Positions 35,514 to 60,219 of a DNA stretch of 64,000 nucleotides are shown one piece after another. Numbering within the stretch: position 1 is the first letter of the stretch; each line of letters opens with the position of its first letter. Source of the stretch: Eledone cirrhosa (taxonomy: Eukaryota); assembly GCA_964016885.1 (NCBI GenBank), contig OZ024746.1:56110001-56174000 (forward strand), read 5' to 3'. Below the pieces are notes generated by a model that saw nothing but the letters and a program-made list of their open reading frames with translations, ran no database searches and was not told the DNA's origin. Position numbers and translations under genes: made by a program.

Positions 35514-35957
35514 TGTGTAAATATTTCGTATCTCCAAAGAAATACAGTTTCAGGAAGCCGTAGATGTCCAGCAGAAGCCAGGGGGACAACCGTCTATGCA
35601 TTTCAGGCTTAACTGGCCTTCGTCAGGACGGTCCCTACCACCGCTTGCGACTGGTGGACTAGAAGACAGCAGAGAATATATACTTTTCTCGTCTGTGTAA
35701 TTGAGGTGATTAATCTCTTTTGCATATGAAGCTGCATAAGTTGGCTCGACTTATAATAAAAAAGAAATACGATTCGCTTCAAGCATAGCTTTATACAATA
35801 TGTGTAAATATTTCGTATCTCCAAAGAAATACAGTTTTAGGGAGCCGTAGCTATGCAAACACCGGGGGCCTAACACCCTCTGGTGATGTTCAGCAGAAGA
35901 AAGGGGGACAACCGTCTATGGATTTCACGCTTAACTGGCCTTCGTCAGGACGGTCCA
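35514..35957 (-). mobile_element. Retrozyme-like tandem repeat I: 322-bp HHR-to-HHR unit, ~1.4 copies
   Basis: Direct repeat starting at 35514 and 35801 (35-bp indel); one HHR per unit; no credible ORF. Confidence 0.75.
35589..35632 (-). ncRNA. Canonical minimal type-I HHR (second copy 35911-35954 has two substitutions)
   Basis: ACCGTC-CTGACGA-AGGC..GCCT-GAAA-TGCA-TA-GACGGT. Confidence 0.88.
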
Positions 35958-38649
35958 ACGTATATGTATATACATGTACGTACATTTTTGTACGTAGGTA
36001 TGTATATATATAACCAATGAGGTGTATTCGGATGTGTATTTCACAAGATAACTAGTTACCAAAATTTAGAAAACGCCAAATGATTATTAAATACAACGAA
36101 GGATTAATTAAAGTGATTAATAAGGAATACCGTGAGAGAAATAGGGAAGGCGGGGTGAGTAATCTAATCTCATATTACACATAAAGGAACAAATACTATC
36201 ATCCCTTCCTCACTCTTCGGTTTGAATACAAAACTGATCCACTTAAAATTTCTAAAAGCCCCATTATTATTTGATGTGAAATGAATCCGGGAATTCGTGT
36301 TATAATGCGGTACATAAAGGAGTGTATAAACGAAATATAACTTCATTAGGAGAGTCTATTTCTCAGTTACCAACCATGAAAATTGTTTCCCACTTGGTTG
36401 TATCGTTGAAATAGCTATATAATATAAACACGAGAATGTTCTACTCTTGAAGCAATGGTGCATTTAAATCTTGACCTTCAGAGGTCAGCAGGCAAACTGC
36501 TGAGTCATGGATTAATGGATTCTATTATATTTCTTTTAAATCTTGGATGCAAACATTCCGTGCCTCTCGGTCCTTTTTGTCCGCTAAATCGCCACCTCTC
36601 CGCTTTTCCAACCAACCTTAGTATCATTTACTCCCACACACTCTAACTAACCCACACATTGATAAAACGATTTTGTTTGGGAGGGGGATACTTCAAAAGA
36701 TTTGAGCTTATCCAATAAAAATAAATTAATGTCGTTGGAGATTAATTTAGATTTTTGCTCATATTTTATTTTATTTTTGATTTTGTTTTTTGTTTTCTTT
36801 CGTTATTTATGGCAATGTGATTTTTGTCAAACCAATAAAATTTTTTCCTTAATTGCCGCCGAAATTTCTATAGAGTACTACATCATAATTCACTGAGCGA
36901 AATCACACACAAGTAAACATACTGAAACACACAAGCACACACTACACTTGCACAGATACAACCAGCCGTCAATCGTGTAGTTTAATTATCAGAGACACCC
37001 GGCACACGCACAAAGGCATGACATCGTCCATCTATTATGGAGTGACATACCGAACCTCACAGAAATACACTATCACATCCTACGTATACACAAATACACC
37101 CAGCATTCCAGCTATTATTATGTGATTGTTGAAGACCACCATTTGCTTTTATATTGCAAGCATTTTAAATAAGTCAAGAAAGAAATTATATTAAACACAT
37201 GTCCCTCACATTTTTCCTCACTTAATATTCTCCCTTTCCTCTTTGTCACTGTTATTCTGACTCTCCTCCTGTCTCACTCACACACTATCACAACATACCA
37301 CCATCTTCTCCACAACTCCCTTTCTCTCTTACTAATTGCATATACACACACACCACACACACATTTATATATATATTTATAATATATATTCATAAATACA
37401 TATATATATAATATATATATATATATATATATATATATATATATATATATATATATATATATATATATATATATATATATATATATATATATATATATAT
37501 ATATATATATATATATATATATATATATATATATATATATATATGTGTGTGTGTGTGGGGGGGGGTATATCTAACTTACTTTTTTTTATTTTCTGTATAT
37601 CTCTCAACCTCACTATATTAATTTATATTTCTCTGTCTCTCTTCCATCTCTCGCTCGTTCATAACAACAGAGAAACAAACAGTTTCTCTTATCTTTGCTG
37701 TAGAGATGTGGGGGTCTCCGTCCTATGATTTAGTCATTCTTACTACGCTGTTTTAACGCCTTATTGTTGGTTTTGACGTTCCTTTGAAATCCGTTAAACC
37801 AGAGATTGAGTTATCATCCTATCTGTTTTGTATCTCAAACATATTAACGTTGAAAACATTATATTTCGGAAACGAATACAAAAACACAACAATCAAAAGA
37901 AAAAATAACTAAATCCCCGCAAGTATTCATAGTATTCTGGTTTAAATACTAAAACAATAAGCATTTTCTTTTTTTCATGTCGAGCTAACCAACAACCAAT
38001 AGCTAGCAAGTTATTGATGTAAATTCCTTACAAGGGAATTCAATCAATAATACTGAGAACCAAGGACTTTCTACACATGTCTAATAAACATCAGTTTTTA
38101 GTATATCTCAACTACCAAAAATATGAATACACAATATTATCGGAGCTTGTATTCGCTAACGAAGATTTGTGAAGCAGAGTTACCCATATCAATTGAAGTC
38201 TCGCTGATGGTTAATTGACAATATAGGAGAGGTTGATCAGAAGGCAGAGTGTGCAAGGTAATTTCATTTCTGGTTTTAATGTTTCTGTGTTACGTTTTGT
38301 AAAGTGCGACCTTCTAGGATAACAAGGAGAACGAAATACCATTTTTGGTAATGTTTAGGTACCATGGTCGTAATAAAATACTAAACATACTTTAGAAAAC
38401 ATAGGAGGAACATATCTGGAAAGAATATAGTTTTTCATCAATTTGTCAGATTTTTGTAGACACGGTCACTAACATATGAGCAAAACACACCCCACCAATA
38501 TCTACAAACAAAATTAAATTCAGAATCCTCCCAAACAGAACACTTTAATCAGAAAAATAAAAAGAACCAAAAAAATATCAACAAATTAAAATACTGCTAA
38601 CAACATATACTGCTAAAATACTGCTAACACACATATTCGACTGCTATCG

Positions 38650-39320
38650 CACTGCCCGAAACAAAACGAATATAGCATCCAACATTGCATGAAGCCCATC
38701 ATCAATAACCAGAGAAGAGCTGAGTACTGCGTCATTGGGAATATCAAACTCAATCTGAAAGTGTTCTTTTCACGTACGAAAGGTCTGTCTCCACTGTTGG
38801 ACCTCTGATTGATGAACATTGCACTCTCCAAGTCAATGATTAAACCATGGGTGAGATAATGTAGAGACAATACAGCTATCTTTTCGGCAATCCTGATAAG
38901 GCTGATCTGGGTTGTATCAGTGATATAAACTATATCGGACATAAAATAATTTAAACACAATTCAACAGTTGGCCCCGATAATTTCCCATTAAGGTATTTG
39001 GGAGGATGCTGAGATCACGAATAACTCACTTTCTTGAAAGGAACTATCTGCTGAACTCCGGCCACCATGGGTTCCGTAATGGAAGGGACTGCATAACACA
39101 GGCCCTGCATCACTTTGATGACATTTTAAGAGTTTGAGAGAGGGCTCCAACACTGATGTCATCTACCTTGATTTGACAGACAGAGCCCAGCATGTTGTAT
39201 TCGAAGGAGTACAATACGATCCAGCCAAAATTAGTTGTGGCGTTCCACAAGGCACTGTATTGAGCCCACTTCCTATCATTAACTTTATAAATGGCCTTAC
39301 TCACATCATCAGGCACAGCA
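38650..39320 (+). pseudogene. Highly deleted CR1/L2-type LINE relic
   Basis: NIKLNLKVFFS, TVGPLIDE, DVIYLD, SCGVPQGTVLSPL. Confidence 0.65.
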
Positions 39321-58540: not shown

Positions 58541-59312
58541 ATATCAACTAGAAATTGATTGACACATATATATATATATATCAAAAATAAACATATGAAA
58601 CTATCACAGATAATAATTTATAAAGTGTGTAAGCACACACATCTAGGTAGGTAAATAATTAGAATTTAACTAGAATTTTAAATATAGATATCTTTTAAAA
58701 TGATTAATATGGCGCATGTCACTCGGACATGACACCCTTAATTTAATTTTGGATACACACACACACACATATATATATATATATATATATATATATATAT
58801 ATATATATATATATATATATATATATATATATATATATATATATATATATAATATATATATATATATATATATATATATATATATATATATATAATATAT
58901 ATATATACGGCCCCTTAATTGTAGAGCTAACTTAGTTGAAAGGACTCGGTTGCTATTTCTAGTGGTCTATATCCTATTCACACCACTGGGATAACGTTGG
59001 TACAATGTGTGTATTTAAAAAAAAATGCAACACGTGTTACTAGTCATTCGCAAATTTTCATTTGCTGTTTAAACACAGATAGTTAAATATTGTCCCTTGC
59101 TTTGACTACTGTGAATTACCGATCGATTGCTGGTGAAATATATTTCTTTAATGAAATATATACAAGGAAGATTTATCATTTTAAGATATCTACATTTAAA
59201 GTTCTGGTTAAAATTTAATTAGTTACCTACCTAGCTGTGTGTGCTTACACACTTTACAAATTATTCCTTGTGATTGTTTCATATGTTTATCAATCAATTT
59301 TTAGTTTATATA
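58541..59312. repeat. Diverged ~150-bp inverted repeat pair (58541-58708 / 59171-59312) around a (TA)n-containing spacer
   Basis: AAAGTGTGTAAGCACACAC..CTAGGTAGGTAA versus TTACCTACCTAG..GTGTGTGCTTACACACTTT. Confidence 0.75.
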
Positions 59313-59340
59313 TATATATATATATATATATATATATATA

Positions 59341-60219
59341 AAAACAAATAACGAAACGAAATTAAATTTCGTTTCGTTTGTAACTCACTTTTGTATGACT
59401 GACGCTTAAACAATTAAGTTAAAAATGTACATCCACATATGTATACTGAAATACTAGTATGCATATGAATACACACACGTATACATATGTAGATGTACCG
59501 AGTTTTTCACTGGTCACTTTACTGTGAGTGTCCAGCTATTCTGTATGTAAACACACAGACAAACCGGTTTTTAGAGTCATACTGGTTTTTGAGGAAACAC
59601 CTTTCCTCTATTCTCCAGAAAGCCAGGCAAGGAATATTGAACTAGTTTCGATGTTGTTACATCTCATCAGCAATATTTACCTATCTTCCGGCCTCTCTAG
59701 AGAATCGTAAAAGCACATATCGTTATATGCTTTTTCTATGAAAATTAGTAGTGGGCAGACTAATTTGCATAGAGTGTGAGTACGTACCGGTTCAACGGAG
59801 ACGATAAAAACAAATAACGAAACGAAATTAAATTTCGTTTCGTTTGTAACTCACTTTTGTATGACTGACGCTTAAACAATTAAGTTAAAAATGTACATCC
59901 ACATATGTATACTGAAATACTAGTATGCATATGAATACACACACGTATACATATGTAGATGTACCGAGTTTTTCACTGGTCACTTTACTGTGAGTGTCCA
60001 GCTATTCTGTATGTAAACACACAGACAAACCGGTTTTTAGAGTCATACTGGTTTTTGAGGAAACACCTTTCCTCTATTCTCCAGAAAGCCAGGCAAGGAA
60101 TATTGAACTAGTTTCGATGTTGTTACATCTCATCAGCAATATTTACCTAAATATTTACTCTAAAAACCGGTTTGTCTGTGTGTTTACATACAGAATAGCT
60201 GGACACTCACAGTAAAGTG
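59341..60219 (-). mobile_element. Retrozyme-like tandem repeat H: 466-bp unit, ~1.7 apparently identical copies, plus a ~63-bp inverted tail (60157-60219)
   Basis: Offset 466 (59341/59807; ORF echoes 59528/59994); one HHR per unit. Confidence 0.85.
59633..59677 (-). ncRNA. Fully canonical minimal type-I HHR (identical copy 60099-60143)
   Basis: AATATTG-CTGATGA-GATGT[AACA]ACATC-GAAA-CTAG-TT-CAATATT. Confidence 0.92.

Follow-up and report, generated by a model that had tools for sequence, protein, structure and literature searches.

How do short non-coding repeats with hammerhead ribozymes spread through animal genomes, and from what kind of RNA are they copied? This question is raised by a stretch of 64,000 nucleotides (nt) of Eledone cirrhosa (assembly GCA_964016885.1, contig OZ024746.1, positions 56,110,001 to 56,174,000; hereafter the window), which holds insertions of four repeat units that we call A (322 nt), B (431 nt), C (593 nt) and D (466 nt) together with fragments of Penelope-like elements (PLEs). 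It seems likely that A-D are retrozymes lacking long terminal repeats (non-LTR retrozymes), copied in trans by the reverse transcriptase (RT)-endonuclease of a PLE from a predicted hammerhead-cut and probably circular RNA of unit length. There is strong support for the view that they are non-autonomous and depend on PLE machinery to move; A, B and D belong to the non-LTR retrozymes, and C is a variant rather than a canonical member. In the parts of the literature considered here it is open who mobilises animal retrozymes, whether or not a circle is the template, and how head-to-head insertions whose tail is on one side only come about in PLEs. This genome offers young families, mapped start sites, intact candidate helper open reading frames (ORFs) and a quantitative rule for insertion ends.

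Four repeat units with predicted hammerheads

The units were located by self-alignment and pairwise alignment, which confirmed the lengths and places given in an earlier note on this stretch, and positions within a unit are counted on the ribozyme strand from the predicted hammerhead cut. The family A insertion (35514-35956, minus strand) comprises 1.22 plus 0.16 units and ends 3′ at the first of two recurrent end positions (site 1, unit position ~116-119) against a (TG)/(TA)n microsatellite; it contains a deletion of ~35 base pairs (bp), and the spacing is 287 from start to start and 322 from ribozyme to ribozyme. Family B (46029-46937, minus strand) comprises 2.11 units whose 3′ end, at site 2 (position 277), abuts (TA)n at 45930-46031, and the dispersed copy previously placed at ~60500 is a fragment of 0.54 unit (60504-60736, minus strand) with a core change in its hammerhead (60703-60673). 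Family C forms a left arm of 1.10 units (51196-51845, minus strand) that stops at site 1 (position 80), next to (TA)n at 51166-51201, and, head-to-head with it, a right arm of 1.38 units (51845-52665, plus strand) whose end at site 2 (position 243) adjoins (TA)n at 52659-52712. Family D (59338-60149, minus strand) has 1.74 units that are 100% identical, with (TA)n at 59307-59340 bordering its 3′ end at site 2 (position 302); beside it lies an inverted stub of 64 bp (60157-60220, plus strand; unit positions 63-126) whose outer end matches neither start site.

Non-integer copy numbers as proposed earlier (1.4, 2.1, 1.1+1.4 and 1.7) are therefore borne out with these refinements, and a tandem arrangement holds for A, B and D but not for C with its head-to-head arms. 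The claim that the units adjoin microsatellites is true of every 3′ end within the window except those of the D stub and the B fragment. All four units are indeed non-coding, with a longest ATG-initiated ORF of 42-68 amino acids each and no RT-endonuclease ORF attached. The units had also been called unrelated, which is incorrect for B and D (~63% identity over ~390 nt; E 1e-29, single-unit alignment); no other pair among A-D aligns beyond microsatellite-like sequence. Their GC content is 36-44% at unit lengths of 322-593 nt, and circular folds with z-scores of -4.3 to -10.2 (40 shuffles each) indicate highly self-paired RNA, with the antisense strand of A folding more stably than the sense strand. 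The B/D superfamily includes several unit lengths with spacings of ~424-500 nt, and the 3′ end of another B/D-related subfamily lies at 55493-55540 (plus strand) as well as at L030, L235 and L245 (L numbers denote loci of the genome).

A structure-checked scan for type I hammerheads across window positions 18001-64000 gave 4 strict matches, compared to 0 in each of 25 shuffles. Four of the nine motifs in the window are intact (A at 35626, B at 46764 and both of D); the remaining five are altered in the core or a stem. The A hammerhead at 35595-35626 (minus strand, like all those of A, B and D) is an intact type I motif with a palindromic 2-bp helix III and a predicted cut after 35595; its second copy (35917-35948) has changes in helices II and III and is probably inactive. 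In B, the motif at 46734-46764 has an intact core, a GUA cut site and a helix II with a U-U pair at its base, which resembles axolotl HHR_Amex2 as far as described, and the motif at 46303-46333 has a core change. Both D hammerheads (59640-59670 and 60106-60136) are intact, the former with a 7-bp helix I, a 5-bp helix II and a GUU cut site. The hammerheads of A, B and D are canonical type I motifs with the CUGANGA/GAAA/UH core, helices I-III, covariation and a palindromic 2-bp helix III, a form described, in the sections considered, as acting in dimers (PMC4209133). Helix I covaries across B-like subfamilies, and an A-U pair of D helix II is swapped to U-A in three of four other sequencing runs and part of the fourth as well as within the genome (contigs of unspecified kind from six runs were used solely for D sequence variants). 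Among the matches listed by Rfam (150 of 267), D has sub-threshold HH9 matches of 34.1 and 33.1 bits versus a gathering score of 52, and no ribozyme match reaches the gathering score; Rfam gave no ribozyme match on C, and microRNA matches on microsatellites and palindromes were set aside as artefacts.

The hammerhead of C departs from the canonical type I form: instead of CUGANGA it has a UUGAUAA core, kept in 65 of 66 copies examined. The family majority combines a U3-A8 core with a helix II of 59 nt, a 3-bp helix III with palindromic loop and a GUC site, and four helix I pairs are kept in 62 of 69 copies examined. The left-arm motif in the window (51276-51355, minus strand) has the U3-A8 core, the 59-nt helix II and the GUC cut site with a helix I that is changed compared to the family majority, and the right-arm motif (52343-52422, plus strand) shares this change; in a computed fold, the hammerhead form of C is 1.1 kcal/mol less stable than the local minimum. 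An early reading of C as devoid of any ribozyme was dropped once the U3-A8 variant and its genome-wide pattern matches had been found. One type I hammerhead per unit, as originally proposed, is thus canonical in A, B and D, but C has the variant core with the 59-nt helix II and only the four motifs named above are intact. The closest likeness to C in the literature considered is the hammerhead of the Schistosoma mansoni PLE Cercyon (PMC4209133), also of type I with a compensatory U3-A8 core pair and an enlarged helix II. In contrast to C, however, the Cercyon hammerhead is a minimal motif with a helix II of 7-8 bp found mostly as single copies, whereas C has a helix II of 59 nt, a helix III of 3 bp with palindromic loop and belongs to a tandem non-coding family of at least 6,034 copies. 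C shows that hammerhead censuses based on descriptors undercount such families. Flanks of L003-L180 contain dozens more type I hammerhead families, several with U3-A8 cores or a helix II of 30-60 nt. Self-cleavage of the A-D hammerheads is a prediction from their sequence and structure.

Far from being single local duplications, the units have thousands of dispersed copies spread over many contigs. DNA searches of the 3.0-Gb genome, in which only the ~40 best candidates were scored, returned first-look candidates for D (555), B (2,498), A (2,187) and C (2,065), with best-match identities of 99-100%, 92-97%, 89-94% and 97-98%, respectively. Exact ribozyme patterns match 34,881 times for B and D jointly, 6,034 times for C and 521 times for A (with a long strict pattern), and reversed-pattern controls gave 0 matches. 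The AT microsatellites and short interspersed nuclear elements suggest a cephalopod host. Arrays range from 2 to at least 20 units, and insertions of A, B and C mostly have 1-3; at L281, at least 20 units follow each other directly head-to-tail with no ORF between them. A D array of ~31 units with a short inverted arm is found at G000:C1:5738324-5752751.

These features are those of metazoan non-LTR retrozymes, which were defined and shown to form circles in a study that named PLEs as candidate helpers (PMC7229834) and linked to pseudo-LTRs (pLTRs) in a preprint whose sections considered here sample no mollusc (bioRxiv 10.64898/2026.07.22.740005). In the parts of both reports that we draw on, retrozymes are likewise non-coding tandem units with a GC content below 45%, one type I hammerhead each, strong self-pairing, thousands of copies and PLEs in the same genome. 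Unlike there, where circles and cleavage were shown, A-D are known from genome sequence alone, and C stands apart with 593 nt and its non-canonical core.

Insertion ends and candidate helpers

The 3′ ends of the insertions cluster at two sites per unit, namely ~119 and ~160 in A, ~218 and 277 in B, ~80 and ~243 in C, and ~230 and 302 in D. Both sites are internal, 80-300 nt past the predicted cut, so that the earlier expectation of permuted endpoints gave way to 3′ ends that are fixed and away from the cleavage site in a dispersed family of high copy number; 3′ endpoints at the predicted cut were rejected. TA runs of at least 8 lie next to 96 of 136 clustered 3′ ends versus 22 of 49 5′ ends. 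The 5′ ends, unlike the 3′ ends, are scattered, and 5 of 103 fall within 5 nt of the cut (2.2 expected, p = 0.07). To judge from these sequences, the enzyme reads through the cut site.

Nearly all inversion junctions (49 of 50) are head-to-head, and the two outer ends of such insertions follow a rule of one of each. Among 47 inverted insertions, 32 pair site 1 with site 2, 0 have the same site twice and 15 have an unassigned end; the same holds for 20 whole D arrays (16 inverted: 15 mixed, 0 same-site, 1 unassigned) and 12 further A loci (2 inverted: 1 mixed, 0 same-site, 1 unassigned), and in 4 of 59 insertions that had seemed one-armed a very short second arm with the opposite end site came to light. 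A genome pattern search found 1,785 D ends exactly at site 2 followed by TA, and in a forward test on the first 60 of these regions, matched on site 2 and TA alone, the opposite end fell at site 1 in 41 (two of them mutual duplicates), at site 2 in 0 and at another position in 5, with 11 not inverted and 3 off the edge. In total, the assignable insertions of A-D are 93 mixed versus 0 same-site. L289, a candidate site-2/site-2 insertion, turned out to be site 1/site 2, and a same-site match of a 9-mer at L165 has no TA after it and was taken as chance. Coding PLEs obey the same rule with 14 of 14 assignable Hydra-type insertions (30 loci) and 13 of 13 Neptune-like ones (20 loci), a total of 27 versus 0.

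The arms overlap by 0-7 nt at the junction in 14 of 16 arrays. The arms are mostly joined at unit positions that bear no relation to each other, so that two primings fit better than fold-back self-priming as proposed in PMC3846280 (in the parts considered). Target duplications could be read where the target is not a microsatellite (13 nt at L009, 13 nt at L170 and 9 nt at L081), and because they are clean and without added TA we disfavour a telomerase-like addition of (TA)n during insertion; a search for empty sites gave 6 of 122 candidates, every one ambiguous. A-D thus combine two internal start sites that bound a tail, 5′ truncation, a head-to-head partner, an AT-rich target and a short duplication. 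The proposal that they are non-autonomous elements moved by PLEs is upheld, as they match coding PLEs of this genome in their (TA)n targets, in having 3′ ends fixed at two positions but 5′ ends that scatter, in their head-to-head arms and in duplications of 9-13 nt.

Endonuclease-positive PLEs, as described in the parts of three studies that we draw on (PMC11167929, PMC3846280 and PMC8557442), share with A-D the two internal start sites bounding a tail, the AT-rich targets, the head-to-head structure and the tail on one inverted repeat. In vitro, a PLE enzyme uses two internal RNA sites as its starts, with both strands being cut and extended, and a dimer has been predicted (PMC11167929). Differences are that A-D have no ORF, that their tail is 46-163 nt long compared to 30-40, and that the tail is called optional on one of the inverted pLTRs of known PLEs (PMC3846280) whereas both ends of A-D never use the same site. 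The retrozyme papers, in the sections considered, infer mobilisation by PLEs from co-occurrence and pLTR similarity and do not include an insertion-end signature, head-to-head arms or editing marks. Nothing in the literature searched was found to describe the A-D families, a rule of strictly one end of each kind or editing marks within arrays of retrozymes, and supplements, Repbase or Dfam may hold the families.

Two PLE fragments of the window represent candidate helper types. The first (52710-55485, minus strand) is a 5′-truncated and frameshifted member of the Hydra clade (defined in the sections considered of PMC8557442) with RT, CxCx5C linker and endonuclease, a (TA)n target and its own site 2 end in the (TA)n tract that it shares with C. 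Its frame of 463 amino acids includes the linker, and its family has 69,595 genome candidates, many with intact frames of 713 amino acids; Pfam fails to recognise the Hydra RT, and the clade assignment rests on the motifs of PMC8557442 and 483 homologues. The second (40571-44372, minus strand) is a head-to-head copy with an RT fragment (41972-43393) and site-1 and site-2 ends in (TA)n whose DKG motif and C-terminal endonuclease suggest a Neptune-like element; its family has 13,778 genome candidates, many with 784-amino-acid frames. Hydra-type and Neptune-like copies alike have two end sites past a hammerhead-like motif, in (TA)n. The Neptune-like family is young (40571-44372; L249, L252, L257 and L263) with two overlapping frames of ~455 and 784 amino acids, and the full copies that were read have a hammerhead-like motif with a U3-A8 core and GCAA replacing GAAA. 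In one Hydra family (52827-52867 and 63935-63975, minus strand), the predicted hammerhead has A at core position 4 (CAGAAGA; 37 copies), and the 3′ end of a further, L205-like Hydra family with a long-helix-II hammerhead lies at 45830-45925 (plus strand) in the (TA)n tract of B.

A Hydra-clade enzyme likely serves C, given that C resembles the Hydra families in the motifs after both start sites: these read GCTCT and GCTCC shortly after site 1 and site 2 in three Hydra families (the start sites of two were read by eye) and ACTCT and ACTCC in C. By itself, the single 11-mer that C shares with one Hydra family is weak evidence (~1% per position); it is the paired motifs that carry the link. Insertion into (TA)n and hammerheads are shared with the Hydra-clade PLEs described in the parts considered of PMC8557442; A-D differ in being non-autonomous and without extended homology to the three sampled Hydra families. 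For A, B and D, no helper was matched exactly, and matches of 8-9 nt to the ends of Neptune or Hydra elements do not exceed the null.

Template, mechanism and rival explanations

Variants within arrays bear on the template. Array-fixed variants are common to both arms in 14 of 14 informative inverted D arrays, an array of 16 units (L162) shows zero differences, and 19 D arrays have 17 modal haplotypes, with 1.28 differences within versus 4.39 between arrays. Fixed changes of D that are private—absent from the other sampled D insertions, with 87 of at least 1,785 sampled—show A>G in excess over T>C on the ribozyme strand (16 versus 4, p = 0.0065) compared to a singleton control of 21 versus 16 (p = 0.41), and distinct fixed changes of C show 12 versus 4 (p = 0.003), though its singletons are skewed too. 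The insertion at L312 has 9 A>G changes within 120 nt, each in at most one other sampled insertion and identical in every covering pass (p = 2e-8, before correction for 87 insertions), and L311 has 8, most also in other insertions and identical across passes. A-to-I editing acts on double-stranded RNA, and we infer that the A>G clusters are ADAR edits of one structured monomer that was copied repeatedly. The ADAR neighbour preference is suggestive only, with G before 1 of 20 hand-picked sites versus 25 of 147 adenosines. Such an editing signature offers a way of probing, in any genome, if tandem copies stem from a single RNA, and together with the end rule it makes helper and circular template directly testable.

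A course of events that would link these observations begins with an array of more than one unit, which is probably transcribed on the ribozyme strand because the A>G changes are strand-biased. By analogy with known retrozymes, the hammerheads, likely as dimers through their palindromic helix III, would then release a monomer that becomes ligated. A PLE enzyme, likely a dimer, would nick both strands of an AT-rich target ~9-13 nt apart, as suggested by the duplications observed, and the two nicks would prime on one shared RNA, with site 1 used by one of them and site 2 by its partner; the pattern of ends is seen directly, and the shared haplotypes point to a single molecule. Both enzymes may run past the cut site, going round a varying number of times, before the complementary DNAs are joined head-to-head by short microhomology, or one of them is lost, which corresponds to the structures found. 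The longest arrays would be extended by block duplication at the DNA level, as their periodic variants suggest. The strictest form of this proposal—obligatory two-strand priming by a PLE dimer on one circular RNA with the enzymes chasing each other round it, ADAR edits written into all units and arms, a rule that is general for endonuclease-bearing PLEs, and C as an active retrozyme with U3-A8 core and long helix II—is put forward tentatively, as falling a little short of probable. If true, the arrays would document the retrozyme cycle in full, endonuclease-bearing PLEs would integrate in general by the one-of-each rule, and standard searches would be overlooking an active retrozyme in C.

Several observations weigh against a retrozyme copied from a monomeric circle by a PLE enzyme. 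At L176, L310 and L331 (inverted D arrays), a variant is common to both arms solely in the 3′-most unit, which a pure monomer circle cannot give, and variants at L161, L165, L166 and L169 are periodic over several units; multimer templates, arm-to-arm conversion or later duplication therefore also contribute. The A>G bias is absent in A (0 versus 4) and weak in B (2 versus 0), and in C the private changes show it weakly (5 versus 2, p = 0.11) with a singleton control that is skewed too (4 versus 0, p = 0.02). The position ranges for site 1 and site 2 in the counts of mixed ends were derived from the same endpoint data that had defined the clusters, and scores in the DNA searches cover the ~40 best candidates. 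Regarding the helper, no PLE terminal repeat or untranslated region (UTR) among three Hydra families and 60 Hydra-type loci is homologous to A-D over extended length, and the Neptune-like family was compared to A-D by eye around the start sites only. From the literature considered, frog dimers showed cleavage in 1 of 9 cases (bioRxiv 10.64898/2026.07.22.740005), and ribozyme mutants of a PLE insert normally in vitro (PMC11167929). The circular template of the earlier note, which has also been proposed for PLEs in the sections considered of PMC4209133, thus has indirect support from haplotypes and A>G marks, countered by L176, L310, L331 and the periodic arrays.

Much of this evidence would suit twin priming by a PLE enzyme on a template that is mostly an uncut linear multimer, with the hammerhead a passenger or rarely acting and arrays homogenised at the DNA level. 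The 3′-unit-only variants and the block periodicity of long arrays are what such a template predicts, 5′ ends are hardly enriched near the cut, and the main in vitro substrate, as far as described, was unprocessed RNA (PMC11167929). However, independent edits should then vary from unit to unit, yet the clusters at L311 and L312 are identical in every pass; 17 haplotypes fixed over 19 arrays would require frequent monomer bottlenecks, and the hammerhead helices covary between subfamilies. We therefore regard this alternative as rather unlikely. The retrozyme reading also has to be set against one in which the units are plain pseudo-LTRs, that is, 5′-truncated ends of coding PLEs, whose end signature and hammerhead position are identical and whose Hydra 5′ UTRs share a short motif with C. 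Yet units are joined directly head-to-tail, at least 20 in a row without an ORF at L281, and no homologous UTR occurs among the 60 Hydra-type loci. PLE protein matches turned up in 11 out of 150 loci with units, including the window's own neighbour, and in the 7 that were read by eye the PLE is a separate insert beyond a TA tract or junction. The units are not attached to coding PLEs, whereas constant attachment would, by the earlier note, have spoken against retrozymes, and we consider this reading largely refuted and very improbable. Satellites or DNA-level duplications with chance ribozyme-like motifs are scarcely credible: block duplication does expand some long arrays, but the shuffled and genome-wide controls gave 0 matches, and the spread across many contigs, the fixed positions of 3′ ends, the duplicated targets and the strand bias of A>G changes are at odds with this view, which is refuted by end structure and covariation.

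Other repeats of the window

Further head-to-head palindromic elements lie at 48844-49960, 30862-32033, 62592-62975 and 26538-26850, the first three with hammerhead-like cores (at 49663/49124, 31948/30947 and 62876, respectively), and are probably more PLE or retrozyme families. A 35-bp satellite of ~513 copies with 82% matches fills positions 18-17850. RT fragments above the Pfam cut-off at 20229-21017 (minus strand) and 23740-24327 (plus strand) are probably from long interspersed nuclear elements, and a dispersed repeat of ~150-200 bp that resembles short interspersed nuclear elements occurs at 22703-23118, 35243-35441, 47854-48067 and 56461-56662.

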